Shown: positions 37,596-64,000 of the stretch, one piece after another
How the letters are laid out: each line of letters starts with the position of its first letter
How positions within the stretch are numbered: the first letter of the stretch is position 1
IMG/VR virus record: IMGVR_UViG_3300020446_001812
Coordinates: 1-64,000 of that record
Length of the DNA: 64,000 nucleotides
Origin: a virus
Strand: one strand, 5' to 3'
Notes under the pieces: generated by a model
The model's database searches: none
Told to the model about the DNA's origin: nothing
Seen by the model: only the letters and a program-made list of their open reading frames with translations
Program-made: the position numbers and the translations under genes

Positions 37596-37943
37596 ATGGA
37601 CGAGAGATTAGAAAAAGCAATAAATTTTTCAAACTTTTTAGATACACAAAACAATCAAAAAAATATTTTTTACAAACAGTATCAAGAAAATTTAATACAT
37701 TATGCATTTGGACATAAATTTGTTGCAACTCCGCAACTTATAAATTTTCTATACACATTTGTAAAAGAACAAGAAAAAACTTGTATACTGATTGATGAAA
37801 ACAATACCCCTGTAGAAATACCTGATGTAAAAAGTTTTGCAAAAGAATTGTTAGGTGTTTACATCTTTGCCTCAAGAAAGTATGCAAAAGATTATAATGA
37901 TATAAAAACACACAGATCAGTTGAAGGATTAACTGACTTATGA
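37596..37943 (+). CDS. hypothetical protein (115 aa)
   Basis: ATG 37596 follows the AAGGAG RBS (the track start 37572 lies too close to the promoter). ATGA-coupled to the next gene. Confidence 0.7.
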   Translation: MDERLEKAINFSNFLDTQNNQKNIFYKQYQENLIHYAFGHKFVATPQLINFLYTFVKEQEKTCILIDENNTPVEIPDVKSFAKELLGVYIFASRKYAKDYNDIKTHRSVEGLTDL

Positions 37944-38788
37944 CACATGGTGTTTTACTTTTTGCATTTAACAACAGTAATATAGATTATGTAAAGCAAG
38001 CAATATATTGTGCAAAACGTGTTAAAAAGCATTTAGGCTTGCAAGTACAATTAGTTACAGATGCTATTGATTATATAGAACAAACATATCCTTTTTATCA
38101 AAAATATATCGATCACATTACATACCAAGAGACGCCAAAATCTGCAAGGAAAAAATTTTATGACGGCATTTACTCAAACAAAACTTTAGAATGGAAAAAT
38201 AGTGCAAGGGACACAGCATACCATTTAAGTATATTTGATAAAACTTTAGTGATTGATACAGATTTAATTATATGTAACAACAAACTCTTAGAATGCTTTA
38301 CAAGCAATCAACAATTTATGATTGCAAAAAAATATAATCTTGTTAACACAAATAAAGTAGAACCTAGTTTTGATAAAATAAGCGATAAAAGTATTCCTAT
38401 GTTTTGGGCTACAATTTTATATTTTGAAAAATCAAAACAATCAAAATTAATTTTTGATTTAGTTTGTCATATAAAAGAAAATTACAACTATTACAGATTA
38501 GTTTATGATATTGTTGAAAAAAAATTTAGAAATGATTTTGCTTTTAGCATAGCAATACATATTATCAATAATTTTCAAAATAATAAAAGCTGGCCCTTAG
38601 CAATTCCAACAGATATGTGGGTATCGACTGACAAAGATATATTGGTAGATATTCAAAATGATAAAATTAAATTACTAGCACATAAAGAGTATGATTATAT
38701 CGTAGTCAAATTACAAGATGCAACTACACATATTATGAATAAATTTAGTCTTAACAAATATATTGATGAGGAATTTAAAAATGAGTAA
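37940..38788 (+). CDS. GT-A fold glycosyltransferase (GT8-like)
   Basis: GVLLFAFN..DYVKQA, FDKTLVIDTD DxD motif, FWATILYF.K, FRNDFAFSIA. Confidence 0.7.
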   Translation: MTHGVLLFAFNNSNIDYVKQAIYCAKRVKKHLGLQVQLVTDAIDYIEQTYPFYQKYIDHITYQETPKSARKKFYDGIYSNKTLEWKNSARDTAYHLSIFDKTLVIDTDLIICNNKLLECFTSNQQFMIAKKYNLVNTNKVEPSFDKISDKSIPMFWATILYFEKSKQSKLIFDLVCHIKENYNYYRLVYDIVEKKFRNDFAFSIAIHIINNFQNNKSWPLAIPTDMWVSTDKDILVDIQNDKIKLLAHKEYDYIVVKLQDATTHIMNKFSLNKYIDEEFKNE

Positions 38789-39590
38789 CGGAATATGTAT
38801 TGTTGCTCAGAACAATAAGCAAACAGACTATGTGAGACAAACATATGGATTAGCACTAAGCATTTTAGCTAGTAACCCTAACACCAATATAAGCATTATT
38901 ACAAACGACATTGTTCAGCAAAAATACAAAAAAGTATTTGACCATATTATAGAAATACCATGGGATGACTTAGCAAAACAGCAATGGAAAATAGAGAATA
39001 GATGGAAAGTTTATCATTGTACTCCTTATAGAAACACTATGGTTTTTGATGCAGACATGTTAGTACTAGATAAAATCAATTGGGATTATCACGATCATAA
39101 TAATTTAGCATTTACAACAAACGTAAGCACGTATAGACAAGAAACAAGTAACAACAGGTATTATAGAAAAACGTTTGATGCAAATCTGTTACCTAACATT
39201 TATACTGCAATGTATTATTTTAAAAAACATCCAGAGGTAAAAGAATATTTTATACTTTTAGAACTTATTGTAAAAAATTGGCAGTATTTTTACAAAAAAT
39301 ACACTAACGTTAAAATGCAAAATTGGTGTAGCATGGATGTAAGTGCCGCCATTGCACTTAAAATATTAGGTATACAATCCTATTGTACTAATGAACAACT
39401 TACATTTACACATTTAAAACCTCACATGCAAAACTTTACACAAGTGCCTAGTAAAATATTTGACGCATGTAAAATTGATATAGATGATGGCATTTATATA
39501 AATGGATATAAACAAAAAGGTGTGTTACATTATGTAGAAGATGATTTTTTAACAGAAGATGTTTTATCTTGGTTAGAGGAGCAAGTCTAA
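38781..39590 (+). CDS. GT-A fold glycosyltransferase (GT8-like), paralog of preceding gene
   Basis: GICIVAQN..DYV, ENRWK....TPY..TMVFDADM DxD motif, FTHLKP, LHY. ATG 38781 with GAGGA RBS. Confidence 0.72.
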   Translation: MSNGICIVAQNNKQTDYVRQTYGLALSILASNPNTNISIITNDIVQQKYKKVFDHIIEIPWDDLAKQQWKIENRWKVYHCTPYRNTMVFDADMLVLDKINWDYHDHNNLAFTTNVSTYRQETSNNRYYRKTFDANLLPNIYTAMYYFKKHPEVKEYFILLELIVKNWQYFYKKYTNVKMQNWCSMDVSAAIALKILGIQSYCTNEQLTFTHLKPHMQNFTQVPSKIFDACKIDIDDGIYINGYKQKGVLHYVEDDFLTEDVLSWLEEQV

Positions 39591-40117
39591 TGTTTTATAT
39601 GCATTACGGAGAAGATGGAAATATTTTGTCAGTTGGTAATTCTATTGATAGTAATTTAAAATATATAGAAATAGACGAACAAATGTTTTTAGACTTCAAC
39701 GAAGGACGAAAACAAACTTTTGAATATAAGGTAATTGAAGATGTAAAACTAAACGGAAAAATGCATGTAGTGCCTGTAAACATAGACTTTATAGATCAGT
39801 TACAACATAAAAAAGGAGTGATTAAAGTAAGTAATAATGAAGATAATTGTATAAAAATTATGCAACATAAAGATAAATGGGAAATTATTAATTGCTTAAA
39901 TAATGAAACATCCTCTATTTTATCAGAAAATGATTACTATAGGGAATATTATATTACAAAAAATACAAACAAATACATCTTACTTGATAAGTTTGAAATA
40001 AATTTAAGAGATTTAGTATTTGAAAACATTTTTATAGAAGGGCACAGTGCGGAAAAGGAAGTTAGTATTATATGTTTTGAAAGTTATTTTAAACATATCC
40101 ATACCATATCAGTATAA
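39590..40117 (+). CDS. hypothetical protein (175 aa)
   Basis: TAATG-coupled start at 39590 with GAGGAG RBS. No motif recognised. Confidence 0.65.
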   Translation: MFYMHYGEDGNILSVGNSIDSNLKYIEIDEQMFLDFNEGRKQTFEYKVIEDVKLNGKMHVVPVNIDFIDQLQHKKGVIKVSNNEDNCIKIMQHKDKWEIINCLNNETSSILSENDYYREYYITKNTNKYILLDKFEINLRDLVFENIFIEGHSAEKEVSIICFESYFKHIHTISV

Positions 40118-40818
40118 TGGATTTTACAAATTTTAAAAATTTAATTACATTTGGTTGTAGTCACACTTGGGGTGCGTGTATGCCTGATATATTTGACCCT
40201 AAGGATAAGCACGGTCAGCAAAGACACGACGGAAAAATATATCCAAGCAAATACGCTTGGGGCAATATCGTTGCTTCATTATTTGGTTTAACGCACAATA
40301 ACCAAGCGATGGCAGGAGCATCAAATAGATACATTTTATACAAAATTTTGAACCATGATTATGATAAAGATGTAGTATGTATACTTTGGTCGCATACACA
40401 CAGGCATACTGTTTTTAAAAGTGAAAAAAGATATGAAAATTGGGGGCCTTTTTCTGTAGACACTAGCAAAGCGGCAAAGATGTGGTATCAGCATTGTTAT
40501 CAAAGTTATGATAGTATTTTAGATACTGCACAGTGTATTAATCATGCAATGCTGTATTTGAATTCAAAGAATATTCCTAATTATCATATTTTGCAAACTA
40601 AACAAGGAAAAGATCTTTTTAAAGGATTTCCCAAAGAACCAATAAGATATATTTTAGATTCAAAAATACAAAATGTATTTTTTGATGAGTTTAGAAGGAT
40701 ACCACCTCTTGCACTTGATAATAAACATGCCGGTGAAAAAGCACATAGGAAATTTGGAAAAGCAGTTGCAAGATCTATCTTAAATAATAAACAAATTACA
40801 ATAGGAGAACTACTATGA
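40117..40818 (+). CDS. SGNH/GDSL-type hydrolase or acyltransferase-like protein
   Basis: Block I FGCSHTWG, block II NQAMAGASN, C-terminal DNKH (DxxH). Confidence 0.7.
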   Translation: MDFTNFKNLITFGCSHTWGACMPDIFDPKDKHGQQRHDGKIYPSKYAWGNIVASLFGLTHNNQAMAGASNRYILYKILNHDYDKDVVCILWSHTHRHTVFKSEKRYENWGPFSVDTSKAAKMWYQHCYQSYDSILDTAQCINHAMLYLNSKNIPNYHILQTKQGKDLFKGFPKEPIRYILDSKIQNVFFDEFRRIPPLALDNKHAGEKAHRKFGKAVARSILNNKQITIGELL

Positions 40819-41732
40819 AGGTTATAGATTATGATATAATATATCTATCATATGATGAACCCAATGCAGAAAAAAATTATGCTGACCTGTTAACGAAAGC
40901 ACCTTGGGCAAAACGTGTGCATGGAATCGAAGGATCAGATGCGGCACACAAGGCCTGTGCAGAATTATCTGAAACTGATAGGTTTATAACTGTTGACGGT
41001 GATAATATTATTAGAGCAGATTTCTTACAACAAGAATTAAATATTTCTAATGATGTTAAATTATCAGAAAGTGTAATTAGTTGGTGCGGAAAAAATTCTA
41101 TAAATGGATTAATGTATGGTAATGGTGGGTTAAAGTGTTGGCCTAAAGAATATGTATTAAATATGCGTACACATGAAAACGCAGATCCAAATAATGAAGC
41201 AGCTCAGGTTGATTTTTGTTGGGATTTGAAATACATTCAACAAAACAGTTGTTATTCAGATGTATATAACAATGCAACACCTCAACAGGCTTGGAGAGCT
41301 GGATTTAGAGAAGGTGTCAAGATGGCTCTTGATAGAGGAGTAAAACCTAGTGTTGAGGACTTTTTAAAAGGACATTGGAAAAACTTACATAGACTATGGA
41401 TATGGTTAATGGTAGGGTCTGATGTTGATAACGGATTATGGGCAATATATGGTGCCCGAGAAGGATTGGTTAAAACTATGTTAACGGATTGGGACTTTGT
41501 TAACGTTAGAGATTTTAAATATTTAAATAATTTATGGAAAGAAAAAGAAAAAGTAGATTCGCAAACTATGTTATTAGAAGCAATAGAAATATTAGGAGCA
41601 TCATTAATTGATAGTTTAGATATACCTATAGGACAAATGCCATTTGATGAACAGCAAAGTAAGTTTTTCAAGACTGTTTATCAAAATCCTAGTAGGAATC
41701 CAAAACAACAATTTGTAATAGACCCGGAATGA
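40815..41732 (+). CDS. GT-A fold glycosyltransferase-like protein
   Basis: YLSYDEPNA, RVHGIEG..AAH, FITVDGDN DxD motif, YGNGGLK, AWRAGFREG.K. Confidence 0.65.
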   Translation: MKVIDYDIIYLSYDEPNAEKNYADLLTKAPWAKRVHGIEGSDAAHKACAELSETDRFITVDGDNIIRADFLQQELNISNDVKLSESVISWCGKNSINGLMYGNGGLKCWPKEYVLNMRTHENADPNNEAAQVDFCWDLKYIQQNSCYSDVYNNATPQQAWRAGFREGVKMALDRGVKPSVEDFLKGHWKNLHRLWIWLMVGSDVDNGLWAIYGAREGLVKTMLTDWDFVNVRDFKYLNNLWKEKEKVDSQTMLLEAIEILGASLIDSLDIPIGQMPFDEQQSKFFKTVYQNPSRNPKQQFVIDPE

Positions 41733-43063
41733 TCGATAATTTTCAACAGGTTAAAACAGAACTAGATAATGTAGGTTGCGGATTTTGCCTTGCTAAATGG
41801 ACGCAAGTTACAATTCATTTATCTTCCGGCATCACTCATAGTTGTCATCACGTAGGTGCTCATAAAATACCCCTTGATGAACTTAAACTAAATCCTAATG
41901 CATTACATAATACAAAAGAAAAGAAATTGCGTAGGAAAGAAATGCTTAACGGCGAACGTCCTAAAGAATGTGATTACTGTTGGAGAATTGAAGACAACAC
42001 TACAGAATATAGTGACAGAGTTCTAAAAAGTTCAAGGTCTTGGAGTCAAATAGATAAAGATAAAATATTACAAAATAATTGGGATGAAGATATATATCCT
42101 AGATATGTAGAAATAAGTTTTTCAAATGTTTGCAATTTTAAATGTGCATACTGTGGACCTCCTTTCAGTAGTAAATGGACAGAAGAAGTAAAATCATTAG
42201 GACCTTATAAATTAAAACAAAAACATTATAATGGAATTAAAAGCACAGAAGTTCCTTATACTAATAAAGAAGAGAATCCGTATATTGATGCATTTTGGAA
42301 ATGGTTTCCAGAATCAGTAAAACACATGAAAGTGTTTAGAATTACAGGAGGAGAGCCACTTTTATCTAAACATACATTACCTGTAATACAATATTTAATA
42401 GATAACCCACATCCAGATTTAGAATTTGCAATTAACACAAATGCATGTCCTCCGGATATTCTATGGAATATTTTTGTAGATAAAATTGTTGAATTAGAGA
42501 ATAATAAATCTGTTAAAAATTTTACTTTATATACAAGTGCTGAAAGTTACGGCAGTCAAGCAGAATATGTTAGAGATGGAATGGATTTTGATTTGTTTGA
42601 AAAAAATTTAACACATTTTATACAAAAAACAAAAAGGTCGAGAGTAACAATAATGAGTGCATTTAATATATTAAGTTTGCCTACATTGAAACCTTTTATA
42701 AGATGGTCAAATAAATTAAAAAGACTTTCGAGAGGCAGAGTGTTTTTAGATTTTGCATATGTAAGGCATCCAGAATTCTTAGATGTTAAAATTGCAGATA
42801 AAGATTTAATAGATCAGTATATTAAACCTGCTGTAGATTATATGATTGAAAAGGATGTATATACGGATTATGAAATATTTAAACTAGAAAGAATATATAA
42901 AGATTGTATTTCTAAATTAGAAAAAGAGTTTGATTTCAAATTAGAAAAATATCAATTTTACCAATTTGTAAATGAATACGACAAGAGACGTAATAAAAGT
43001 TTTTTGTTAACATTTCCAGAACTAAAAAACTTTTATAAAAAATGCGAGGCCTATTATGTATGA
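41729..43063 (+). CDS. radical SAM protein with N-terminal twitch-like Fe-S domain
   Basis: CNFKCAYC motif, ITGGEP; N-terminal CLAKW...SCHH...CDYC. Confidence 0.9.
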   Translation: MIDNFQQVKTELDNVGCGFCLAKWTQVTIHLSSGITHSCHHVGAHKIPLDELKLNPNALHNTKEKKLRRKEMLNGERPKECDYCWRIEDNTTEYSDRVLKSSRSWSQIDKDKILQNNWDEDIYPRYVEISFSNVCNFKCAYCGPPFSSKWTEEVKSLGPYKLKQKHYNGIKSTEVPYTNKEENPYIDAFWKWFPESVKHMKVFRITGGEPLLSKHTLPVIQYLIDNPHPDLEFAINTNACPPDILWNIFVDKIVELENNKSVKNFTLYTSAESYGSQAEYVRDGMDFDLFEKNLTHFIQKTKRSRVTIMSAFNILSLPTLKPFIRWSNKLKRLSRGRVFLDFAYVRHPEFLDVKIADKDLIDQYIKPAVDYMIEKDVYTDYEIFKLERIYKDCISKLEKEFDFKLEKYQFYQFVNEYDKRRNKSFLLTFPELKNFYKKCEAYYV

Positions 43064-43739
43064 TATAGCATTTATAAGTTATAATGAAAAGCAAGCTGAT
43101 AAAAATTGGGAAATATTATCTAGTAAATTCAAATATGCCAAAAGAACGCACGGAGTAAAAGGTATACATCAAGCACATATAGAAGCGGCTAAAAAAGCAT
43201 TTACTCCAATGGTTTGGTTTGTAGATGCAGATGCTGAAATAAAAGAAGATTTTGATTTCAGCTATATTCCGCCAAGAAAAGATAGAGATGCTGTGCATGT
43301 ATGGAGAAGTCAAAATCCTATAAATGATTTAGAATATGGATACGGAGGCGTAAAACTTTTTCCAAGAATAGCTACTATAAATGTAGACGTTAATAAACCA
43401 GACATGACAACAAGTATTAGTAAAAAGTTTATACCTATGCATACTATAAGTAATACAACGATGTTTAATGTAGATGAATTTAGTACATGGAGAAGTGCAT
43501 TTCGAGAATGTGCAAAATTAGCAAGTAAAACAATTGATAGACAAAACGAGGAGGAAACAAATGCAAGACTTAAAACTTGGACAACCGTGGGACACACTAG
43601 AAAGTTTGGTGAATATGCGATTCGAGGTGCTTACGATGGTATGGAGTTTGGCCTTTCTAGGGGGGCTGATCTTCGGTTAATAAACAATTACGAATGGTTA
43701 AAGGAGCAGTTTGATGCAAACACAAGAATTATTAGATAA
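43056..43739 (+). CDS. GT-A fold glycosyltransferase-like protein (paralog of 40815)
   Basis: FISYNE, THGVKGIHQAH, WFVDAD, YGYGGVKL, WRSAFRE..K. Confidence 0.65.
   Translation: MYDIAFISYNEKQADKNWEILSSKFKYAKRTHGVKGIHQAHIEAAKKAFTPMVWFVDADAEIKEDFDFSYIPPRKDRDAVHVWRSQNPINDLEYGYGGVKLFPRIATINVDVNKPDMTTSISKKFIPMHTISNTTMFNVDEFSTWRSAFRECAKLASKTIDRQNEEETNARLKTWTTVGHTRKFGEYAIRGAYDGMEFGLSRGADLRLINNYEWLKEQFDANTRIIR
43561..43680 (+). CDS. nested +1-frame small membrane protein (39 aa)
   Basis: GAGGAGG RBS (43548-43554), 6 nt, then ATG. MQDLKLGQPWDTLESLVNMRFEVLTMVWSLAFLGGLIFG*, with a hydrophobic C-terminal helix. Host-frame codons are atypically G/C-ending across this span. Confidence 0.55.
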   Translation: MQDLKLGQPWDTLESLVNMRFEVLTMVWSLAFLGGLIFG

Positions 43740-44670
43740 ATTTGAAATACTTTATCCAAATGTTGCTGATTTGCGTAGGGCTTACACTGATAAAGATTTA
43801 AGTAGTATTTTTAGATTACTAGATGCAAACGATGATTTACGCAAAGCAGTAATGGAAGAAAACTTACATAGTATATTTAGAATCATAAAAAATTATGATG
43901 TAGAAGAATTACGAAAAGCAGTCACAGAAAAAAATTTACACAGTATTTTCAGACTTGTAGATGACGAAGATTTACGTAAGTTTTTACTAGAGGATAATAT
44001 ATACAAATTATGGCCTTTACTACGTAGATTTACAAATACACAATTTGTAGATGCATTTAAAAGTTTTTTTATTAATAATATTGAAATTGACAATGATTGT
44101 TTTAGCAGAGGACAATTATTAAGTAAACAATGGTTAATTAAGGAATTGTTAAAAATTAATAAAAATTTAGGAACAGTGTATCTTTGTGCAGGATGGTATG
44201 CTACACTTGCAACAATGTTATTTGAAAGTAATATAAAGTTAGATAAAATTAGATCTTTTGATATAGATGAAACTTGTGTGCCTATAGCAAAAATATTTAA
44301 CAAGCCTTGGTTAAAAGAAAACTGGAAATTCCAAGCATCAACTATAGATATAAATGATATAGATTATAGAGAACACACGTATCAAGTAACAAGAGCAGAT
44401 GGTACTTCCTGCTCTGTTACTGATCAATGCGATACTGTTATAAACACAAGTTGTGAACATATTGGAAATTTTTCTAAATGGTATAACAATATTCCTGCAA
44501 ATACAATACTTGTGCTTCAAAGCAATAATTTTAATGAAGTGGAGGAACATACAAATTGTGTCAATAATATAGAAGAATTTGACAACATGACACCTATGCA
44601 AGAAACTTACTATAAAGGTGCACTTGAACTAGACAAATATACGAGGTACATGAAAATTGGATATAAATAA
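43714..44670 (+). CDS. class I SAM-dependent methyltransferase-like protein with N-terminal helical repeats
   Basis: VYLCAGWYATLA (motif I variant), RSFDID, DTVINTSCEH. AAGGAG RBS before ATG 43714. Confidence 0.65.
   Translation: MQTQELLDKFEILYPNVADLRRAYTDKDLSSIFRLLDANDDLRKAVMEENLHSIFRIIKNYDVEELRKAVTEKNLHSIFRLVDDEDLRKFLLEDNIYKLWPLLRRFTNTQFVDAFKSFFINNIEIDNDCFSRGQLLSKQWLIKELLKINKNLGTVYLCAGWYATLATMLFESNIKLDKIRSFDIDETCVPIAKIFNKPWLKENWKFQASTIDINDIDYREHTYQVTRADGTSCSVTDQCDTVINTSCEHIGNFSKWYNNIPANTILVLQSNNFNEVEEHTNCVNNIEEFDNMTPMQETYYKGALELDKYTRYMKIGYK
43768..44013 (+). repeat. four degenerate 63-72 bp coding repeats (D/E-LRKA...NL.SIFR)
   Basis: Units start at 43768, 43834, 43906 and 43969: DLRRAYTDKDLSSIFRLL / DLRKAVMEENLHSIFRII / ELRKAVTEKNLHSIFRLV / DLRKFLLEDNIYKLW. 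Confidence 0.8.
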
Positions 44671-44893
44671 TTTTAGTCTAAGAAAATTGCAGACAGAAAG
44701 TTCCCGTGCTTTAAGTGCTATGCAAGCTACTAATAATAATATTCATCAATTCAATAAACAAGCTCATCATAATAGCCAAAATTGGTACAAAGCAGTAATT
44801 GAATGGTATATAAAAGAATATGGCGACATACCAAGTAAAGTAGGTCCGGGTAAAGATGTAAAATTAGTCTTAGGAGAAAACGTTGATACATGA
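44657..44893 (+). CDS. hypothetical small protein (78 aa)
   Basis: TTG start with GAGGT RBS; fills the gap and overlaps both neighbours. Confidence 0.65.
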   Translation: MDINNFSLRKLQTESSRALSAMQATNNNIHQFNKQAHHNSQNWYKAVIEWYIKEYGDIPSKVGPGKDVKLVLGENVDT

Positions 44894-56200: not shown

Positions 56201-57328
56201 ATGAATGAAGATTTAAAATGGAGTAACTATGACTTTACCAAAATCCCGTTTGAGGACATTGTTAGTGTCGGCCAGCGGACACTCTTATATAGAGACCTGT
56301 TTACTGTTAGCTGGCTCCTCGGAAGATTCTGTAACTACAGATGTAGCTACTGCTGGCCCTACGCAAGAAGCGACAGAAAAGATCATAGACCAACAGAACT
56401 CTGTCTTAAAACAATAGATAGTATAAAGGAGCAAGCACGTGGAAATGGCTTTAATAGTTTTCATTTTTCTCTTAGCGGCGGCGAGCCTACCTTTCACCCT
56501 GGATACTTGGACATACTCAACTATCTCGCTGATGATGTTAGCAACACTAATTACACTAGTGTTCATATGACTTCTAATTGTTCAAGACCTATGAAATGGT
56601 TTGAACAATATGTAGAAGTTGCTAAACCTTTTCACAGGGCTAGTATTACAGCAAGTCTGCATACAGAGCATGTAAATACAAAAGATAAGATGCAAGACTT
56701 TGCAGACAAACTTATTTTTTGTCAAGAGCATGATATACAAATTACAATTAATCAAGTTATGGTTCCGGAATGGTTTGAAAGAGATTGGGAAAACGCCCTT
56801 TTCTTTCACGAACAAGGAATCAACGTTACTCTTAAGCCGCAATCAGATCCTACTGCAAGTCGTGTTGTCGATGGTTATAAAAAAGAAGATTTAGAAAAAT
56901 TATGGAATGGCATGCCTCAACGTGCATATACTGAAAGTAAACGTAAATGGGCAGAAAGACCTAAAGCAAAATGGTTAAGTTGGAAAGATTTCAACACTGA
57001 AGAATCTGTACCGCCACATTTTCAAGTTGAATTTGAAGATAGCAAAGGCAAAAAATGGTATATGGATCAGGCAGAAAGATTTAATGCTTTTAATTTTAAC
57101 AAGTTCAAGGGCTGGAGATGTAATGCAGGATTCAGCGGAATAATTATAAGAGAACCTGACGGTAGTATTAAAAGAAGCTATTCTTGTCATGATGATCCTT
57201 TAGGAAACATTGAAACAGGATTTAAACTTTTTAATGCGCCTCAAACCTGCATAACAGATAGTTGTGTTAGTTCGGCTGACAGTAAAATACCAAAAAGGAA
57301 AACTAATGCGTCAACAACAGCAGATTAA
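56201..57328 (+). CDS. radical SAM protein with C-terminal Cys-rich (SPASM-like) domain
   Basis: CNYRCSYC, LSGGEP, TSN; C-terminal CNAG...SC...C...C...AD. Confidence 0.9.
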   Translation: MNEDLKWSNYDFTKIPFEDIVSVGQRTLLYRDLFTVSWLLGRFCNYRCSYCWPYARSDRKDHRPTELCLKTIDSIKEQARGNGFNSFHFSLSGGEPTFHPGYLDILNYLADDVSNTNYTSVHMTSNCSRPMKWFEQYVEVAKPFHRASITASLHTEHVNTKDKMQDFADKLIFCQEHDIQITINQVMVPEWFERDWENALFFHEQGINVTLKPQSDPTASRVVDGYKKEDLEKLWNGMPQRAYTESKRKWAERPKAKWLSWKDFNTEESVPPHFQVEFEDSKGKKWYMDQAERFNAFNFNKFKGWRCNAGFSGIIIREPDGSIKRSYSCHDDPLGNIETGFKLFNAPQTCITDSCVSSADSKIPKRKTNASTTAD

Positions 57329-58001
57329 CAAAATAAAACAAACTCATAGTGACCCTACACAGTTTGTAAATATTCTTTCTGAAGATAAGATAAATTTTTT
57401 AATTGAACATTATGAACAATCGGATAAAAAAATAGAAAAAAATACAGGACCGATTATGCTTACTGTAAACGAAGGTGATGGCATAATAGATGATATATTA
57501 AAATTACTTAGACAAATGTATGGAAATTTTAATGTGCGTTCTGCCCATTTTTTTGATGTGAAAGATCCGCATATCATACATGTAGATGATGGCAAGGAGT
57601 TACCAGATAGTTTTAAAGCATTTACAATTCCTTTACGAGTAATTGGCAATGATGCAAGTAAGGCTAAATTAATTATGTTTGACCAATATTACTATGGCGG
57701 TGCAGCCAAGTTTATGAAAAATGGTCCTGCAGTCAAAAAAACTTTTTATAATACGCATTTGTACATTTATGACGATGTGCAAGGGTTGAATGACAAAGGT
57801 ATTCCCGAAGAATATAAAGGCATGTTAAGTCATCTCAAAGAATCTTGGTATGATGGCTTGAGTATTAAAAGTTATTTTCCATGGACTATCGGATCTATAA
57901 TTTGTTTTGATAGTTTAAGATTACATTGTGCAAGTAATTTTAAGACAGAAAATATAGAAAGGAAACTAGGCCTAAGTATTTTTACCACTCAGCCTAATTA
58001 A
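57306..58001 (+). CDS. 2OG-Fe(II) oxygenase-like (DSBH) protein, paralog of 50437
   Basis: IHVD, FTIPL, FDQ, W.IG..I.FDSLRLH, KLGL. ATG 57306 with AAGGA RBS. Confidence 0.6.
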   Translation: MRQQQQINKIKQTHSDPTQFVNILSEDKINFLIEHYEQSDKKIEKNTGPIMLTVNEGDGIIDDILKLLRQMYGNFNVRSAHFFDVKDPHIIHVDDGKELPDSFKAFTIPLRVIGNDASKAKLIMFDQYYYGGAAKFMKNGPAVKKTFYNTHLYIYDDVQGLNDKGIPEEYKGMLSHLKESWYDGLSIKSYFPWTIGSIICFDSLRLHCASNFKTENIERKLGLSIFTTQPN

Positions 58002-58003
58002 TT

Positions 58004-58471
58004 ATGGAATTAGTAATTAGTGAATTACATTTGAAAAAGCCACCTTGGACTTTGAGAAATAAATTAATTGCAGAACATTTAGAACCAAATAAATCTGTAA
58101 TTGATATAGGAGGTGGAGCCGGAGATATTTTGAAATATTACAAGCCTAGTAAATATTGTAATATTGATGGGATGCCAGTTGATAATGTTGATATTATTTT
58201 AGATTTAGATTCAGATTATCATTTGGAATTAGAGGAAGGTTGGGATTATTCTATCAACAGTGGCATCTTAGAATGGGTAAAAAGGGTAGACTATTTCTTA
58301 GACAAACAAAAAAATTTAGCAAACAATTATATTTTTACATGGCATCACGATCCATTATGGGGAAGGATGAGTTTTAGTCGAATAGAAAGTATAATTAATG
58401 AAAATTATATTATAAATGATACCATACCTTGGGGCGGTAAGCAAAAAATATATAAATGTAAAGCAAAATGA
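58004..58471 (+). CDS. class I SAM-dependent methyltransferase
   Basis: SVIDIGGGAG motif I, NID, DLD, DYSINSGILEW. Confidence 0.75.
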   Translation: MELVISELHLKKPPWTLRNKLIAEHLEPNKSVIDIGGGAGDILKYYKPSKYCNIDGMPVDNVDIILDLDSDYHLELEEGWDYSINSGILEWVKRVDYFLDKQKNLANNYIFTWHHDPLWGRMSFSRIESIINENYIINDTIPWGGKQKIYKCKAK

Positions 58472-59490
58472 AGAAATGTGTCTATCCTAATAATATTTTA
58501 ATTGTAGGTAACGATGGTTACACTGATTCCTGTCCATTAGAAACTGCTAATTTACGTTTAGAAAATATTAATCAAGGAATACAAAAATCCTGGCAAAGTC
58601 CAAAGTATGCTGATTTTAGAAATAATTTAGAAGAGTATCTTAATAATAAAGATAAAATATGTTGGCAGTGCAACATGCTAGAAAAAAATGGTGGTATTAG
58701 TTTAAGAACAGAAACACCATTAATCACAGATTCTCCAGAACTGAAGGCTATCCAGTTTAAGTTAAGTAATCGTTGTCAACTTGTTTGTGCTCATTGCGGA
58801 CCTAATTTAAGTAGTAGTTGGGGTAAATTTGTTGGCCAAAAAAATTATATTAAGCAGTTTGAAATCAAGGATCATGTATTAGATGAACTTAAAACATTAG
58901 TCCCACAAATGAACTTTATAAGATTTACAGGTGGAGAACCATGGATGGATCCAATGCATTGGAAAATACTTAAATCCTTAAAAGGTATAGATAAAAAAGA
59001 CTGTGAATTACATTATATAACCAACGGACTATCAACTATAAGACCTGAACTATGGGAGGGTTGGAAGAAAATACAAATTATGTTAAGCGTTGATGGGTTT
59101 GGTGAAAGCTATGAATGGTTCAGAAGACAGGCATTGTGGAAAGATCTTTTACAAGCATATGAAAATTTATCTAAGCATCCAAATGTTAAATTAAAAATTA
59201 ATTTTTCACTTACACCATGGACAGTAGATAGTCTAGCATCTGCGAAAGAATATTTTCAAAATCCATTTTTAGTTGTTCCGATTATGTCACCTTGGCATTG
59301 TAGTTTAGGAAGTTTGACCGAAGACGAATATAATAATTTGGGCTTGACAAAGTACGTAGAATATAGTAAAATAATAGGAAGTAATCCAAAAGGTGCAAAA
59401 TATTTAAAGACCTGGGCGTTAAGTTGGGACAATAGATGGAATACACCAGGATTAGCAGAAAAGGTACATCCATGGTTGAACAAAATATAA
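58468..59490 (+). CDS. radical SAM protein with N-terminal twitch-like domain
   Basis: KCVYP..SCP...CWQC; CQLVCAHC; FTGGEP; ITNG; LSVDG. Confidence 0.9.
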   Translation: MKKCVYPNNILIVGNDGYTDSCPLETANLRLENINQGIQKSWQSPKYADFRNNLEEYLNNKDKICWQCNMLEKNGGISLRTETPLITDSPELKAIQFKLSNRCQLVCAHCGPNLSSSWGKFVGQKNYIKQFEIKDHVLDELKTLVPQMNFIRFTGGEPWMDPMHWKILKSLKGIDKKDCELHYITNGLSTIRPELWEGWKKIQIMLSVDGFGESYEWFRRQALWKDLLQAYENLSKHPNVKLKINFSLTPWTVDSLASAKEYFQNPFLVVPIMSPWHCSLGSLTEDEYNNLGLTKYVEYSKIIGSNPKGAKYLKTWALSWDNRWNTPGLAEKVHPWLNKI

Positions 59491-60092
59491 CAACAGCTAT
59501 AGTAAACAAAAAAACACAATCTAAAGAAATTCTTGATTTTTGCGGATATGCAAGTACATTTACTAATGATCCTGCACATGTAAATATGTACCATAAAAAT
59601 TGGGCAGACAGACCAGAAACGTTGCCATACTTAATTTATATAAGTGAACGATTTAGAAATAATAACGGCGACTTTTATGTTTTAAAAATTAATAATGTAA
59701 TTAAGGCAATATCGGGCGTACAAATTAGTCCATTTGATACTAATGTAGCAATGGCAGGCATAAGGAGTTGGATAGATCCTAGTCTACGAGCTAAAATGTA
59801 TATAGGACACCACCTTTTACCTTTACATTTATCTTGGGCAAAAGAAAAGGATTTAAAAACTATTTTGTTATCTTTTAATAGTTATAACAAACGGTTGATG
59901 AATTATTTTAAAAGATCAGGTATGGGAGTGCCTAAACAGCGTAATGAAACAAGATTATTTAATAACGGTGTACATGAAGTTCCGTTTAGTGTAGATATAC
60001 AATATACAGAGCAATGGGTGTTGTACCACAAAATAGACGAGTCTTACGAACCTGATTGGAAAAAAATAATGTGGAATAAAAATAGTCGATAA
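59472..60092 (+). CDS. GNAT-fold N-acyltransferase-like protein
   Basis: IKAISG, RSWIDPSLR...IG..LL...L.WAKE...K.I.LSFN.YN resembles GNAT motifs A/B. ATG 59472 with AAGGT RBS. Confidence 0.55.
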   Translation: MVEQNITTAIVNKKTQSKEILDFCGYASTFTNDPAHVNMYHKNWADRPETLPYLIYISERFRNNNGDFYVLKINNVIKAISGVQISPFDTNVAMAGIRSWIDPSLRAKMYIGHHLLPLHLSWAKEKDLKTILLSFNSYNKRLMNYFKRSGMGVPKQRNETRLFNNGVHEVPFSVDIQYTEQWVLYHKIDESYEPDWKKIMWNKNSR

Positions 60093-60100: not shown

Positions 60101-60859
60101 ATGCAAGATATTATAAAATCAAACACCAACACTTTATCTTATATACAATACATTGCATTGTTCATTGTTGTTGTAGGGTTTGTCTATGTGGATTTTACCT
60201 GGCAATTCATTGCATTATCGATATTAAGTTTTTATATATTTTCTATACTTGGTTTGAGTTTGACGTTGCATAGATATTATAGTCATAAGAATTTTGAATT
60301 CAAGAACAATATTTTGCGTAAATTATTTACATATATTGCTATATTAGCAGGTAGGGGTAGTCCGTTAGGATGGGTCTACATACATAGAATACATCATAGG
60401 CATGCTGATACAGAATCAGACCCGCATGGACCTAAGACTACTGGTTTAAGATTTTTTGGATTCAAACCTAAAGATACAGAAAATAAAATGAAGGTTTTTT
60501 TAGTAAAAGATTTACTTAATAAAGAACAATTATTTTATCATAATTATTATTTGTTGTTTATTTTAGGATTTATGGCTATTCTTGGTATAATAAATTTTGA
60601 TTTTTTATATTTTGGTTACGCTATTCCGTTACTTGGTATACAATTTAGTCAAAACTTTTTTAACTTTTTTGCACACAAATTAGGGTATAGAAATCATAAT
60701 ACTAAAGATGATAGTACTAATAATATTTTACTATGGCCTCTTATTTGGGGAGATGCATGGCACAATAATCATCACAACAATTTAGCTAAATTTACTACAA
60801 AAGAAAAATGGTGGGAATTAGATCCTGTTGTGAGTATAGCAGGAGTAATTAAAAAATGA
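60101..60859 (+). CDS. membrane fatty-acid (acyl-CoA, delta-9-like) desaturase
   Basis: His boxes HRYYSH, HRIHH, HNNHH; DT..DPH; transmembrane segments; WWELD. Confidence 0.92.
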   Translation: MQDIIKSNTNTLSYIQYIALFIVVVGFVYVDFTWQFIALSILSFYIFSILGLSLTLHRYYSHKNFEFKNNILRKLFTYIAILAGRGSPLGWVYIHRIHHRHADTESDPHGPKTTGLRFFGFKPKDTENKMKVFLVKDLLNKEQLFYHNYYLLFILGFMAILGIINFDFLYFGYAIPLLGIQFSQNFFNFFAHKLGYRNHNTKDDSTNNILLWPLIWGDAWHNNHHNNLAKFTTKEKWWELDPVVSIAGVIKK

Positions 60860-61626
60860 ATTATTTAAAAAGTAATACAATAGTTGCACAAATAGTTCTT
60901 GCTATATCATTAGCTGGAACAATTTTTGGTTATTACAGTTACGGCATTACATTAGGAACCGTATTACTGCCTATATTAGGATACTTTTTATATGTAGGTT
61001 TAGGAATAAGTGTTACCTTTCACAGACAACTTACGCATAGATCATACAAAACACATCCTTGGATTATAAAATTAGGAACAATTCTTGGAACATTAAGCAA
61101 CACAGGAAGTAGCATTGTGTGGGTAGCAATACATATGAATCATCATAGACACGCAGATACTGAAAAAGACCCTCATAGTCCAAGACATCAAGGATTAAAA
61201 ACTTTTGCATTAGAGTATGATTTAGACACAAGCCGAGTGAAATGGAAAATGAAACATCTAATAGGAGATCCATTTCATATGTTTCTACACAAATATTATT
61301 TTGCAGTAATTGCTCTATGGAGTTTAATTCTATATATTATTGGCGGATTTTATCTAATGGTATTTCTACATTGGTTTCCAATGATAATAAGCGGAGCAAT
61401 GAGTAATATTGTAAACTATATAGGGCATAAACCTAATTGGTGGGGTGGCTATCGTAGATATAATACACGAGATGATAGTATAAACAACTGGCTATGGGCG
61501 ATTCCAAGCTGGGGAGAAACATTACACAACAATCATCATAAAAGACCTTATTCATACAGCCATGGTGAAAAGTGGTGGGAAATTGATATTGGGGCATATA
61601 TTGTTAAGCTAATAAAGGCTAGATAA
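60856..61626 (+). CDS. membrane fatty-acid (acyl-CoA, delta-9-like) desaturase, paralog
   Basis: HRQLTH, HMNHH, GETLHNNHH; DTEKDPHSP; WWEID. Confidence 0.92.
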   Translation: MNYLKSNTIVAQIVLAISLAGTIFGYYSYGITLGTVLLPILGYFLYVGLGISVTFHRQLTHRSYKTHPWIIKLGTILGTLSNTGSSIVWVAIHMNHHRHADTEKDPHSPRHQGLKTFALEYDLDTSRVKWKMKHLIGDPFHMFLHKYYFAVIALWSLILYIIGGFYLMVFLHWFPMIISGAMSNIVNYIGHKPNWWGGYRRYNTRDDSINNWLWAIPSWGETLHNNHHKRPYSYSHGEKWWEIDIGAYIVKLIKAR

Positions 61627-61629
61627 TAT

Positions 61630-63252
61630 ATGACGCAAGTTATTATTTTTACTGGGACATCCCGAACTGATCCCAAAAATAAAATTTATTCTCAACAAGA
61701 CATGACAGCAAGTATCTTGATGCGACCATTAGGTGCGTATCAGATTGCTTCTATATTAAGAGCAAATGGATATACAGTACAGGTTATAGATCGCTTCCAT
61801 TGGTTAATTAGAGAAAAAGGTCGTGAATTTTACCGGGAAGTTATCCGGCCTCATATAGGAGCTGATACATTATGGATAGGATGGAGCAATACCTTTTGGG
61901 AAGGTGAACCAAGAGCTGGGCCTGAAGATTTAAAAAACATAGGATATTTGGCAGAGGCAGCACGTTCTGTAGGCATGCGAGAAGAAGGGTTGCAGGCAAT
62001 GCAAAACTATAGGCAGGAGATAAATCCAAATATTAAATTTGTAGTTGGTGGCGCAAAAACTTGGAGATGGAGTCAACAGGATTTTAAGTTTTTTGATTAT
62101 TATGTAGAAGGCTATGCTGATGTAATGGCTTTAGAATTGACCAATTGGTTAGCTGGCAAAGGAGATAAGCCTGCTTGTAGACCTAACGATGACGGTTCTG
62201 AAATACTAGATTACGATAAACGTGGTGATAAATTTGACTTTGTAAATCATGTTCATAGATGGCATCCTACAGATTATTTAAATCAAGGAACTTCTTTACC
62301 TATAGAAATTGCAAGAGGTTGTATATTTAGATGTGCTTATTGTAGCTTTCCGTTAAACAATAAAAAGAAATTAGATTTTATTAGAGAACCAGAGCAACTG
62401 AAAGAAGAATTTGTAAGAAACTACGAAGAGTATGGAGTGACAAAATATTACTATGGAGATGATACTCATAATGATAGTGTAGAAAAACTAGAATTTTTGT
62501 ATGATAAAGTATACTCTCAGCTACCTTTCAAAATAGAATTCGCAACATATCTAAGATTAGATTTGCTTGCCGCACATCCACAAACTATACCATTGCTGTT
62601 AGAAAGTGGATTAGTAGGAACATTTTTTGGTATAGAAAGTTTCAACAAAGATGCTAATAAAACCGTAGGCAAAGGAGCTACAGAGGAAAAAATTTATGAA
62701 AATTTATACAAATGTAAAGATGTTTGGAAAGATAAGGTCCACATTCACGCTGGTCTAATAACAGGTTTGCCTAATGATAGCGAAGATACTATACTAGATT
62801 GGGGAATGAGAGCTACTAGTAAAGAATCACCTATTGACTATGCTATGATTACTGAATTACATTTATTTCCTAAATGGGGTAAAGACACTCATTGGCTTAA
62901 TAAAATGGAATTAAATCCTGCTTTTTATGGTTATGAGTTTGAAGAAGATGGCATTCAATATACAAATAATGTAGGATTAACAAAAAGCAGAGCGGCTCAA
63001 CTAGCAGTTCATTTATTAAAAAATATGGATGAGCAAAAAAAGGGCAAAGATTGGTCTATGAATAAGAGTCAAATGCAAGGATGGTATAGTTTTGCACATG
63101 CCGCAAATTGTGGTATGACCACCCATGAATACTTAAATAAGGGTCGATTAGATATTTTAAACCGTAGAGAAAGTATTTTAAATAATTATTATGCAAAATT
63201 AAAAAACGGTGCTAAAATAGAACAAAACAGAAAGGATAGTTATGATGGCTGA
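61630..63252 (+). CDS. cobalamin(B12)-binding radical SAM protein
   Basis: RPLGAYQIASILR..GY.VQVID and VVGG B12-domain pattern; EIARGCIFRCAYC; DD; GIES; GLP.D. Confidence 0.88.
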   Translation: MTQVIIFTGTSRTDPKNKIYSQQDMTASILMRPLGAYQIASILRANGYTVQVIDRFHWLIREKGREFYREVIRPHIGADTLWIGWSNTFWEGEPRAGPEDLKNIGYLAEAARSVGMREEGLQAMQNYRQEINPNIKFVVGGAKTWRWSQQDFKFFDYYVEGYADVMALELTNWLAGKGDKPACRPNDDGSEILDYDKRGDKFDFVNHVHRWHPTDYLNQGTSLPIEIARGCIFRCAYCSFPLNNKKKLDFIREPEQLKEEFVRNYEEYGVTKYYYGDDTHNDSVEKLEFLYDKVYSQLPFKIEFATYLRLDLLAAHPQTIPLLLESGLVGTFFGIESFNKDANKTVGKGATEEKIYENLYKCKDVWKDKVHIHAGLITGLPNDSEDTILDWGMRATSKESPIDYAMITELHLFPKWGKDTHWLNKMELNPAFYGYEFEEDGIQYTNNVGLTKSRAAQLAVHLLKNMDEQKKGKDWSMNKSQMQGWYSFAHAANCGMTTHEYLNKGRLDILNRRESILNNYYAKLKNGAKIEQNRKDSYDG

Positions 63253-63610
63253 ACATTGGGGTTACCATGCTTTATTTGATTGTGCTGAATGCAATTTGCC
63301 TAGTGTGACTAGTAAAGATAATGTGCTTAATTTTCTAAAAGAGCTTGTTTTAGAAATAGATATGGTGCCTTTTGGTGATCCATTCATTGAACACTTTGCT
63401 ACACACGATCCGCAAAAAGCAGGTATTAGTTTTTTTCAAATGATTGAAACAAGTAACATAAGCGGACATCTTTGTGATATAAATGGTGATGCATATATAG
63501 ATGTTTTTTCATGCAAAGAATATGATGTAGAGAAAGCACAGGCAGTAGTACAAAAATATTTTTCACCTAAGAAAATTAGATTAAATTATATCACTAGATC
63601 TGCAAGTTAA
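63242..63610 (+). CDS. speD: S-adenosylmethionine decarboxylase proenzyme
   Basis: WGYHALFD, GISFFQMIETSNISGH (pyruvoyl-forming Ser), YIDVFSCK. Start at 63242 or 63245. Confidence 0.85.
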   Translation: MMAEHWGYHALFDCAECNLPSVTSKDNVLNFLKELVLEIDMVPFGDPFIEHFATHDPQKAGISFFQMIETSNISGHLCDINGDAYIDVFSCKEYDVEKAQAVVQKYFSPKKIRLNYITRSAS

Positions 63611-63619
63611 GGATATGTG

Positions 63620-64000
63620 ATGATTCTTTTGTTCACAGATGTTAGTCATACTCCTGGTATAGGCAAATATGCTGGAACATATAAAGTTGCGACAGAATTA
63701 CGCAAAAATAAGTTTGATACCCAAGTTATTGATTGTTTTAAATACTTGGGTATTAAAAGGTTGAAAAAGATTCTTGATAAGTTCTTAACAAATAAAATTA
63801 TTTTGATTGGTATTAGTAATACCTTAATGTATAATCAAAAATTTATGTGGGGCATCACTGACAAAGAATTCGAGGAATTTGTAACTTATGCAAAAAAAAT
63901 AAATCCTAACATAAAATTTATGGTAGGAGGAGCAGGCGTTACACAATATTCTAATTGGCCATATATAGATTATTCTATAATAGGTAAAGGCGACTCAGCC
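63620..64000 (+). CDS. partial B12-binding radical SAM-like protein (runs off window; not in ORF track)
   Basis: Open to the window end: MILLFTD...AGTYKVATELRK..FDTQVID...IGISNT...INPNIKFMVGGA...DYSIIGKGD, colinear with the N-terminal B12 domain of 61630. The CxxxCxxC motif would lie beyond the window. Confidence 0.75.
   Translation, partial: MILLFTDVSHTPGIGKYAGTYKVATELRKNKFDTQVIDCFKYLGIKRLKKILDKFLTNKIILIGISNTLMYNQKFMWGITDKEFEEFVTYAKKINPNIKFMVGGAGVTQYSNWPYIDYSIIGKGDSA

Follow-up and report, generated by a model that had tools for sequence, protein, structure and literature searches.

IMG/VR record IMGVR_UViG_3300020446_001812 is a 106,431-bp viral contig whose first 64 kb, here called the window, carry a long island of tailoring-enzyme genes directly after the genes for the tail fibres. 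The island is one accessory operon that runs on from the tail-fibre genes of an uncultured marine jumbo myophage, and the gene block is real, conserved and built in three layers: a post-fibre cassette, a set of radical S-adenosylmethionine (SAM) enzymes and oxygenases, and a group of sporadic add-ons. Its product is read here, tentatively and at somewhat below an even chance, as a radically tailored glycan made in the cytoplasm and attached to a virion protein. Phage islands for glycosylation or tailoring next to fibre genes are already known, as are phages with many radical SAM enzymes; new are the dissection into three layers with counts, the fold evidence for proteins g02 and g17, and a layer shared with Bdellovibrionota without transferase-like genes.

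The contig has a GC content of ∼32% and was estimated by CheckV to be ∼30% complete, implying a genome of ∼350 kb, and absences reported for the whole contig cover about 30% of the phage genome. From 37572 to 64000 the window is filled by ∼32 plus-strand open reading frames (ORFs) that overlap by 1-65 nt or are separated by gaps of at most 37 nt. The full island comprises ∼35 co-oriented, mostly overlapping genes (g01-g35) between 37572 and ∼74.2 kb (∼37 kb), with overlapping stop and start codons throughout. An earlier interpretation made from the letters of the window alone (the sequence-only reading) had described about 30 co-oriented, mostly overlapping genes over at least 26 kb; this arrangement holds, and the block proves to be longer. 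About 35 tailoring enzymes amount to 10% of a ∼350-kb genome, and the phage must gain something large from carrying them.

A conserved cassette behind the tail fibres

Layer 1 (36.6-44.7 kb) consists of p304, g01, two GT8-like glycosyltransferases (g02 and g03), g04, two GT2-like proteins (g06 and g08) around one N-twitch radical SAM enzyme (g07), and the methyltransferase-like protein g09 (Table 1). Its conservation was assessed in 80 fetched IMG/VR loci, drawn from at least 586 with a g02 relative, in which g02 identity was 40-69%. A tail fibre lies upstream in 64 of the 65 loci with enough upstream DNA, and p304, often duplicated, was found in 62 of 65 loci with enough flanking DNA. A g06/g08 relative lies downstream in every one of the 60 loci with enough downstream DNA, and an N-twitch radical SAM gene follows within 5 kb in 54 of these 60. 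The order kept across loci is fibre, p304, g01-g03, g06, and N-twitch radical SAM enzyme, and the synteny of p204 and the fibre genes is kept in 60-67 of the 80. On a larger scale, three longer relatives (86-159 kb, 18-44% complete) have the baseplate wedge gene 42-57 kb upstream of the orthologue of g21, a radical SAM gene of layer 2, on the same strand, as here.

The same order extends to a cultured soil phage. Ralstonia phage RsoM2USA (343.8 kb) carries, from ORF355 to ORF347, counterparts of fibre/p304, g01, g02, g03, g04, g06, g07, g08, and g09 in order; ORF355 is p304 fused to a fibre N-terminus, and all of these ORFs are annotated as hypothetical. The sequence-only reading had proposed that the first genes and a glycosyltransferase pair form a conserved core linked to the tail genes, and had named the lack of such linkage in relatives as evidence to the contrary; linkage was found instead, both in the metagenomic loci and in RsoM2USA. 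The eight-gene version in this cultured phage makes the question experimentally accessible. In mass spectrometry of RsoM2USA virions, in which ten abundant bands were analysed, ORF361 (the homologue of the 4960-residue protein upstream of the fibres here), ORF359, and ORF356 were found, and none of ORF347-354 (PMC8504454).

The best-supported assignment in the cassette is that of g02. Its AlphaFold2 (AF2) model, built from a 29-sequence alignment with a mean predicted local distance difference test score (pLDDT) of 94.5, has a GT-A fold, and the best Foldseek matches are GlyE, glycogenin, LARGE1, and UGGT (E 2e-7 to 7e-6). The motif D106-x-D108 is invariant in the 29 sequences. The nearest folds to this predicted model are GT8-type enzymes acting on protein-linked glycans. 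Protein searches returned 1438 members of the g02 family, and hidden Markov model (HMM) comparison identifies g03 as a g02 paralogue. Neither protein has a Pfam match up to E 5, Glyco_transf_8 included, and no Pfam domain is listed for 120 g02 homologues.

Four GT-A glycosyltransferases had been read from the sequence. Two of them stand, g02 by fold and g03 by paralogy, both GT8-like, whereas the case for g06 and g08 as putative transferases is weak. In g06, D61-x-D63 is invariant, with no Pfam or PDB sequence match. For g08, Glycos_transf_2 scores 20.7 bits against a cutoff of 23.3 (E 4e-4), the sole such match among 22 members of the g06/g08 family. When this family was aligned with g02/g03 by hhalign, the DxD regions fell together at a probability of 1.5%, and the g06/g08 profile had no match among PDB sequences. 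Of the remaining cassette genes, g01 has no Pfam or PHROG match and g04 no family match, as is also true of the sporadic g05. A PHROGs search with g01-g03, g06, g08-g10, g17, and g22 returned no family.

A radical enzyme set shared with Bdellovibrionota

Layer 2 (44.7 to ∼59.5 kb, and again 69.7-72 kb) is an expandable set of individually conserved N-twitch radical SAM enzymes, two other radical SAM enzymes, 2-oxoglutarate (2OG)-Fe(II) oxygenases, and a flavoenzyme. Nine complete radical SAM enzymes and a partial B12-type one had been proposed for the window, and Pfam and NCBIfam bear out all of them (g07, g12, g16, g19, g20, g21, g23, g26, g30, and the partial g32; starts in Table 1). Five, namely g07, g16, g19, g20, and g21, exceed the curated 170-bit cutoff of NF033640 (N_Twi_rSAM), and g26 falls just below it. 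In these proteins a Pfam SPASM match at residues 4-106 precedes Radical_SAM, placing a Cys-rich module N-terminal to the CxxxCxxC core, and C8, C75, C78, and C122xxxC126xxC129 are invariant. The N-twitch family has thousands of members in ocean metagenomes, and none that has been characterised was found. Literature and PDB sequence searches likewise returned no substrate, structure, or paper for NF033640, which is catalogued only. The proteins g21 (1868 relatives) and g23 had no match among PDB sequences. The next-best NCBIfam matches of g19-g21 are mostly peptide maturases, all far below cutoff, and the HxsB and HxsC models score at most 40 bits against cutoffs of 268-370, with no ORF of the contig enriched in HxS or CHxS repeats.

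Three 2OG-Fe(II) oxygenases had also been claimed, and all three find support. Pfam scans up to E 5 were uninformative for these genes. The AF2 model of g17 (pLDDT 91.5) gives Z scores of 10-11 to SnoN, P4H (prolyl hydroxylases), and AlkB, matches that are tied and uninformative about the substrate; H120-x-D122...H264 is invariant. An iterated HMM of g22 reaches PF05118 proteins of two Bdellovibrionota-search loci (L018 and L014; E 3e-29 and 3e-12), and g24 belongs to the g17 family. A gene of the 2OG-oxygenase type lies repeatedly 3′ of a radical SAM gene, as in g16-g17, g21-g22, g23-g24, and possibly g32-g33 (49011-58001 here; also L010:617-2694 and 7664-9664, L010 being a stretch of this same contig), although g33 as an oxygenase has no tool support. 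The g17 orthologue of Bdellovibrionales locus L018 likewise directly adjoins an N-twitch gene, one encoded on the other strand.

Searches of bacterial genomes with g21 orthologues returned two phage-like contigs in bacterial metagenome-assembled genomes (MAGs), as well as twelve loci of Bdellovibrionota, the longest contig among the latter measuring 3.04 Mb. Each Bdellovibrionota locus has 3-9 N-twitch radical SAM genes, and orthologues of g23, g16, g12, g17, and g09 and PF05118 proteins occur among them. No structural gene of this contig was matched in these loci, which therefore appear chromosomal. Identities to the Bdellovibrionota orthologues are 63-67% for g23, 58-59% for g16, 45-52% for g21, 43-45% for g12, and 42% for the Bdellovibrionales g17. 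In a tree of 91 N-twitch genes from 22 loci, phage and Bdellovibrionota sequences interleave within most paralogue subfamilies, and g07 of the cassette itself shares one subfamily with a Bdellovibrionota member. Each genome has 6-7 old N-twitch paralogues, each with orthologues in other phages and in Bdellovibrionota; the interleaving indicates that the paralogues are old and distinct and that the set has moved as a unit or repeatedly.

In the two phage-like contigs (L012 and L013, binned as Crocinitomicaceae and Gammaproteobacteria MED685) the phage island is present with 66-83% identity. Two different baseplate-wedge genes lie on separate contigs of the MED685 MAG, which looks like a mis-binning of phage contigs. 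Among cultured phages, three to four radical SAM genes of the N-twitch type stand side by side in the KVP40-like Vibrio phage K566 (OZ196521.1, 161.5-166 kb); they are distant (∼25% identical to g21), have hypothetical neighbours, and lie ∼5 kb from a gene annotated as lipid A acyltransferase PagP.

Among phage loci, median identity is 81% for g23 (range 75-85%), 73% for g12 and g10, 71% for g16, and 66% for g21, against 44-45% for g02 and g03 and 44-54% for the fibres, a comparison that is rough since the medians rest on differing sets of loci. The 78-residue g10 is 61-76% identical along its whole length in six phage loci, in all of which it lies between g09 and g12; it has no family match and is absent from the Bdellovibrionota loci. 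It may be a partner, scaffold, or substrate. An acyl-carrier or PqqD-like identity for g10 was considered and rejected by eye.

Sporadic add-ons

Layer 3 comprises cytidine monophosphate (CMP)-sugar activation, desaturases, a fatty-acid hydroxylase, B12 radical SAM enzymes, SpeD, and PP-loop enzymes. Genes g13-g15, g25, and g27-g35 have few or no relatives in the fetched loci, and g13-g15 have none in any. The NeuA-like enzyme, the nitroreductase, the two desaturases, and SpeD that had been named from the sequence were all recovered by Pfam. Several other calls fared less well. A GmhA-like enzyme at 46887 (g13; no SIS/GmhA match in Pfam at E ≤5 or in PDB), two SGNH proteins at 40117 and 51306 (g05 and g18, the latter without a Pfam or PDB match), and a methyltransferase in g09 (nothing among PDB sequences with the g09 profile) drew no tool support, and the GNAT (g27, E 0.014) and the small methyltransferase g25 (Methyltransf_23, E 0.003, below cutoff) have weak matches without firm support.

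What the island may make

A tailored virion glycan is the most economical reading of the strict post-fibre position, the interleaving of glycosyltransferase-like and radical SAM genes, and the GT8-type fold of g02. We infer the glycan, its acceptor, and every reaction from observed gene content, the g02 and g17 folds, synteny, solubility, and distribution. Membrane segments occur only in the two desaturases and the fatty-acid hydroxylase, and all other island proteins are soluble. On the 106-kb contig no match was found to PF02397 (Bac_transf), PF01943 (Wzx-type), or PF00303 (ThyA-like hydroxymethylase). Soluble proteins and the lack of an initiating phosphoglycosyl transferase, flippase, or hydroxymethylase on the contig together suggest cytoplasmic synthesis of the product, on an acceptor that does not have to be exported. 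Soluble transferases would use host nucleotide sugars to build a short glycan on such an acceptor, the likeliest being a fibre or baseplate protein of the particle under assembly, and radical SAM, oxygenase, and methyl-transferring enzymes would then edit the sugars or their precursors stepwise. The GT2-like genes flank a radical SAM gene in the conserved core, which suggests one pathway, and a CMP-sugar cytidylyltransferase within the block also speaks in favour. There is precedent in mycobacteriophages, the virions of which are glycosylated by phage transferases encoded beside structural genes (Freeman et al. 2023, as cited in PMC12619734). Were the product a virion glycan, abundant marine jumbo phages would join mycobacteriophages and giant viruses as carriers of glycosylated virions and radical chemistry would be added to glycan tailoring, with a bearing on host recognition by fibres and on resistance to degradation.

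Candidate acceptors are few. The adjacent tail proteins had been described as Ser/Thr-rich, which does not hold for the fibres, whose Ser+Thr content is ordinary (16-22%); the fibres are also nearly Cys-free. Collagen-like or mucin-like acceptor tracts were looked for in the fibres and none exist, the tail of the wedge protein being the only low-complexity tract. This C-terminus (15074-15208) has a Thr/Ser-rich stretch, 14 consecutive Ser, and Ser/Gly repeats including three copies of GGGGSS, and ends in GGGGYGY. It is a possible acceptor in this phage and could be a flexible linker or a modification site.

Several observations weigh against a virion glycan. The ordinary composition of the fibres is one, and the distribution of the wedge tail is another: RsoM2USA and a metagenomic relative (G001) are without the poly-Ser tail and a second relative (G002) has a short Thr-rich tail only, so it cannot be a general acceptor. 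Either g02 or g06 occurs in only one of 50,697 phage records (RsoM2USA) while the wedge protein occurs in 107, and one cassette carrier against 107 wedge carriers means that the cassette is accessory to, and dispensable for, this particle type. GT8 enzymes have a further role in building lipopolysaccharide cores, the assignment of the second transferase pair is weak as described above, and most characterised SPASM/twitch radical SAM enzymes act on peptides or proteins. In the Bdellovibrionota loci, the neighbours are housekeeping-like (DNA polymerase I, EF-G, ATP synthase subunit a, and sigma-70), and no relatives of g02, g03, g06, g08, or g10 were found there. Layer 2 thus need not act on a glycan or a virion, and the claim of the sequence-only reading that the remaining enzymes elaborate the glycan is weakened, since the radical SAM/2OG set occurs in Bdellovibrionota without glycosyltransferase-like relatives and several genes at the tail end of the island are sporadic. 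The layer 2 enzymes (66-81%) are also far more conserved than the transferases and fibres (44-54%), a pattern easier to reconcile with a small, fixed substrate than with a fibre that evolves fast.

The transferases might instead remodel the host envelope, with the GT8-like and GT2-like enzymes acting on lipid A-core or another lipid-linked host glycan at the cytoplasmic face, the desaturases and hydroxylase acting on host lipids, and the changed surface preventing superinfection or the sticking of progeny to debris. We consider this unlikely, even though GT8 is a classic lipopolysaccharide-core family, LpxO, a lipid A hydroxylase, belongs to the PF05118 family that g22 resembles, the two desaturases and the fatty-acid hydroxylase within the block are membrane enzymes, and a cytidylyltransferase for a CMP-sugar of the 3-deoxy-D-manno-octulosonate (Kdo) or nonulosonate type lies there too. 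The glycosyltransferases of the pelagimyophage host recognition cluster are read in this way in PMC7029224, where the authors' own guess is GT8 and lipopolysaccharide modification. Here, the lipid and CMP-sugar genes are sporadic and lie outside the conserved core, no initiating transferase, flippase, or polymerase is present on the contig (∼30% of the genome), and remodelling would not require a strict post-fibre position across deep divergence. A doubtful alternative of another kind is direct protein or peptide modification, in which radical SAM, 2OG, methyl-transferring, nitroreductase, and PP-loop enzymes would act on g10 or on the low-complexity tail of a virion protein in the manner of peptides synthesised on the ribosome and modified after translation (RiPPs), the transferases acting separately or later. 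The enzyme mix does recall RiPP pathways of the polytheonamide type, with their radical SAM enzymes, B12 radical SAM enzymes, 2OG oxygenase, and methyltransferases; secondary matches of g19-g21 are mostly to peptide maturases, though far below cutoff; g10 is small, highly conserved, and always directly 5′ of radical SAM gene g12; and the wedge protein does bear a poly-Ser/Gly tail. Yet g10 is evenly conserved, has no Cys, and does not occur in the Bdellovibrionota loci, neither a leader/core pattern, nor an evident recognition element, nor a protease or exporter was recognised, the gaps in the island (37 nt or less) leave no room for more small ORFs, the nearly Cys-free fibres exclude thioether chemistry there, and the poly-Ser tail is not kept among relatives. 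The only candidate substrates here, g10 and the wedge tail, are both unconvincing.

Layer 2 could also make or tailor a diffusible metabolite in the infected cell, aminoglycoside-, nucleoside-, or cofactor-like, with Bdellovibrionota doing likewise in or near their prey. High conservation (66-81%) of a layer common to Bdellovibrionota at 42-67% identity, old paralogue subfamilies kept in one-to-one correspondence between phages and bacteria, a pattern that fixed steps of a pathway would be expected to give, and a NodU/TobZ-type carbamoyltransferase in one Bdellovibrionales locus all agree with this, and twitch radical SAM enzymes such as BtrN use small sugar-like substrates. With no scaffold-forming enzyme (synthase, cyclase, non-ribosomal peptide synthetase, or polyketide synthase) recognised, and with the phage radical SAM genes interleaved with transferase-like ones, a free small molecule is improbable. 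For the core, both DNA modification and an unrelated mosaic are unlikely. A mosaic without a single pathway, in which the island is the hypervariable end of the structural module stocked with unrelated auxiliary genes, would account for the sporadic right half (g13-g15, g25, g27-g35), for an island length of ∼17 to 37 kb between the same boundaries, and for SpeD, desaturases, and 2OG oxygenases, which are stand-alone auxiliary genes of marine phages (PMC7029224). It is quite improbable for the island, given that 54-64 of 60-65 loci, and a soil phage, keep the core order, that layer 2 genes travel together in phages and Bdellovibrionota, and that stop and start codons overlap through the block. 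Decoration of phage DNA bases by the transferases and tailoring enzymes is very improbable: DNA can be a substrate of virus glycosyltransferases (Pyle et al. 2024, as cited in PMC12619734), but the contig has no thymidylate-synthase-like hydroxymethylase, the block lies in the structural module and has no recognised DNA-metabolism gene, and in Bdellovibrionota layer 2 sits among housekeeping genes.

A wider possibility, also unlikely on present evidence, concerns the N-twitch set itself. It may form a radical pathway of several steps that jumbo phages and predatory Bdellovibrionota have in common as a unit, with each old paralogue installing its own change. The product would be a new decoration (an edited glycan or a direct protein modification) on the attack apparatus, either phage fibres or baseplate or the surface of the predator, with an effect on adsorption or a protective role against enzymes of the host or prey. 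The Bdellovibrionota link suggests that two kinds of bacterial predators have a function in common.

Comparison with described systems

The closest described layout is the host recognition cluster of pelagimyophages and cyanomyophages, a hypervariable island with fibres, glycosyltransferases, and radical SAM cassettes for which no product was given (Zaragoza-Solas et al. 2020, PMC7029224). Compared by layout and description, both are large variable islands in the structural module after a giant baseplate protein, here in the order wedge, 4960-residue protein, fibres, and island. The host recognition cluster, however, was described in T4-like phages of ∼150 kb and ends at the neck gene gp14, whereas the structural proteins of this contig are nearest those of jumbo phages SCTP-2, Atu_ph07, PA5oct, and RsoM2USA, the island ends at a minus-strand block, and, beyond variable content, a strictly ordered core g01-g09 is conserved.

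Radical SAM genes in numbers have been reported before, with 11-12 in Campylobacter phages CP220 and CPt10, which have an interchangeable five-gene module (2010, PMC2853527), and 11-12 in the T4-like marine genome TARA_ERS488813_N000010 (2017, PMC5332604); no product was given for either. Unlike here, a glycosyltransferase cassette or fibre linkage is not described for them. The Campylobacter phages were absent from the tblastn matches of g21 at E 1e-5, so homology is distant at most. The five genes of the window that exceed the NF033640 cutoff (212-419 bits) share with that family the Cys-rich module before the radical SAM core.

In mycobacteriophage virion glycosylation, as in this island, phage glycosyltransferases adjoin structural genes; there they are cytoplasmic and act at C-terminal regions of virion proteins (PMC12619734). 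The system differs in its actinobacterial host, in having one or two transferases and no radical SAM enzymes, and in that glycans have been demonstrated there and genes only here; the moraphage that is the subject of that paper belongs to a different lineage. The Streptococcus pneumoniae PsrP system is similar in that its GlyE heads the structural matches of g02 (Foldseek E 2e-7, template modelling (TM) score ∼0.4). GlyE is a cytoplasmic GT8 enzyme that extends the glycan on a Ser-rich surface protein. The likeness stops at 14-17% identity and a moderate TM score, and no GtfA/B-type initiator or accessory secretion genes are present here.

Gene content, boundaries, and neighbouring genes

Table 1. 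Features of the window and of the adjoining contig, with the evidence for each.
Feature	Coordinates	Strand	Evidence
gp6-like baseplate wedge	11576-15211	+	phrog_10646, E 3e-302
Giant 4960-residue virion/baseplate-associated protein	15211-30093	+	tblastn: virion structural proteins of Atu_ph07, PA5oct, Phosso
p204 and three tail-fibre genes (30738, 33107, 35065)	30119-36594	+	PHROGs tail fibre, collar, virion protein families
p304, Thr-rich (14%), 304 residues, fibre-associated, immediately precedes cassette	36620-37534	+	Synteny
g01, 123 residues, cassette start	37572-37943	+	In 78 of 80 loci; RsoM2USA ORF354 32% identical
g02 and g03, paralogous GT8-like GT-A glycosyltransferases	37940-39590	+	Fold (g02), HMM paralogy (g03)
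g04 (unassigned) and g05 (SGNH-like, motif only, sporadic)	39569-40818	+	g04 in 23 of 80 loci, g05 in 3 of 80
g06, GT2-like, probable GT-A	40815-41732	+	Atlas nearest clusters viral, auto-named 'Glycosyltransferase 2-like'; RsoM2USA ORF350 48% identical
g07, N-twitch radical SAM enzyme of cassette	41729-43063	+	NF033640 316 bits; RsoM2USA ORF349 38% identical, E 1e-99
g08, GT2-like g06 paralogue	43056-43739	+	RsoM2USA ORF348 40% identical
g09, repeat N-terminus and C-terminal methyltransferase-like domain (motif only)	43711-44670	+	Relatives: RsoM2USA ORF347 29%, Bdellovibrionales locus 40%
g10, 78 residues, Cys-free, phage-only	44657-44893	+	Between g09 and g12 in all six loci
g11, nitroreductase-family flavoenzyme	44883-45830	+	PF00881 27.6 bits, above cutoff
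g12, radical SAM enzyme without N-twitch, 12 Cys	45823-46890	+	CxxxCxxC at residue 18; Radical_SAM E 6e-6
g13-g15, CMP-sugar (NeuA/KdsB-type) cytidylyltransferase (47369-48091) flanked by two unassigned genes	46887-49008	+	CTP_transf_3 E 7e-11
g16, N-twitch radical SAM enzyme	49011-50453	+	NF033640 419 bits
g17, 2OG-Fe(II) oxygenase, family without Pfam model	50437-51306	+	Fold and HxD...H triad
g18, SGNH-like, motif only	51306-51974	+	Motif
g19, g20, g21, three N-twitch radical SAM paralogues (starts 51967, 53141, 54279)	51967-55436	+	NF033640 308, 212, 410 bits
g22, Asp/Asn beta-hydroxylase-like 2OG/cupin protein	55433-56164	+	Iterated HMM
g23, most conserved radical SAM enzyme of the island, no N-twitch	56201-57328	+	Radical_SAM E 4e-13
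g24 (g17-like 2OG oxygenase) and g25 (small methyltransferase-like)	57264-58471	+	g24 phmmer match to L018 g17 orthologue
g26 (N-twitch radical SAM enzyme, just sub-cutoff) and g27 (GNAT-like, weak)	58468-60092	+	NF033640 160 bits; Acetyltransf_1 E 0.014
g28 and g29, membrane fatty-acid desaturases (60101, 60856)	60101-61626	+	PF00487 40 and 67 bits; three transmembrane-like segments each
g30, B12-binding radical SAM enzyme	61630-63252	+	Radical_SAM E 2e-15; weak matches to PhpK-type and lipid B12 radical SAM families
g31, SpeD (S-adenosylmethionine decarboxylase)	63242-63610	+	PF02675 62 bits
g32, second B12-binding radical SAM enzyme (full gene 63617-65065)	63617-64000 in window	+	Full gene: B12-binding E 2e-8, Radical_SAM E 1e-16
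Three genes inside the island: 3′-phosphoadenosine-5′-phosphosulfate (PAPS)-reductase/PP-loop-like, DUF2061 membrane protein, 402-residue protein without assignment	Contig 67062-69722	-	

A 37-nt gap separates the fibre-side genes from the island start. Past the window, plus-strand genes of the island continue to 67096 and again from 69750 to 74208, the latter stretch holding a flavin mononucleotide (FMN) oxidoreductase and a further N-twitch radical SAM gene. The right boundary is a minus-strand block at 75904-79940 with an HNH endonuclease-like gene and an ATPase gene and no neck gene. In the related loci L006 and L007 an island of only ∼17 kb lies between the same boundaries as here (fibre and p304 on the left, a minus-strand block homologous to 75904-79940 on the right), and island length between the conserved boundaries ranges from ∼17 to 37 kb. 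Pfam and NCBIfam scans recognised no transporter, protease, replication gene, or DNA-metabolism gene in the island, in line with the sequence-only reading, which had seen none of the first three.

Scans for sigma-70 promoters and terminators did no better than chance. The T4-type late-promoter core TATAAATA is strongly depleted: 17 copies would be expected in the window and 3 are present, with 4 over the whole 106 kb. The copy at 36590-36597 is 23 nt upstream of p304, and that at 44662-44669 falls where the conserved cassette meets the radical SAM layer. Its use as a marker of promoters or transcription units was dropped, four copies on the contig being too few. Small Cys-rich ORFs were taken as noise, all of them being antisense in an AT-rich genome.

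To the left of the island, the plus-strand order is baseplate hub and wedge genes, the 4960-residue ORF, three tail-fibre genes, p304, and the island; p304 itself had no match in a PHROGs search. The closest isolates by wedge and giant protein are jumbo phages, namely Salicola SCTP-2, Agrobacterium Atu_ph07, Sinorhizobium Phosso, and Pseudomonas PA5oct. In one related jumbo-phage contig (G003:C1:154079-157570) the wedge match lies within a 4874-residue open frame with one TAA, which suggests wedge/giant protein fusion or readthrough. Upstream of the structural module and divergent from it, SbcC- and SbcD-like nuclease genes lie on the minus strand at 1454-4233, and ORF370-371 of RsoM2USA are arranged likewise.

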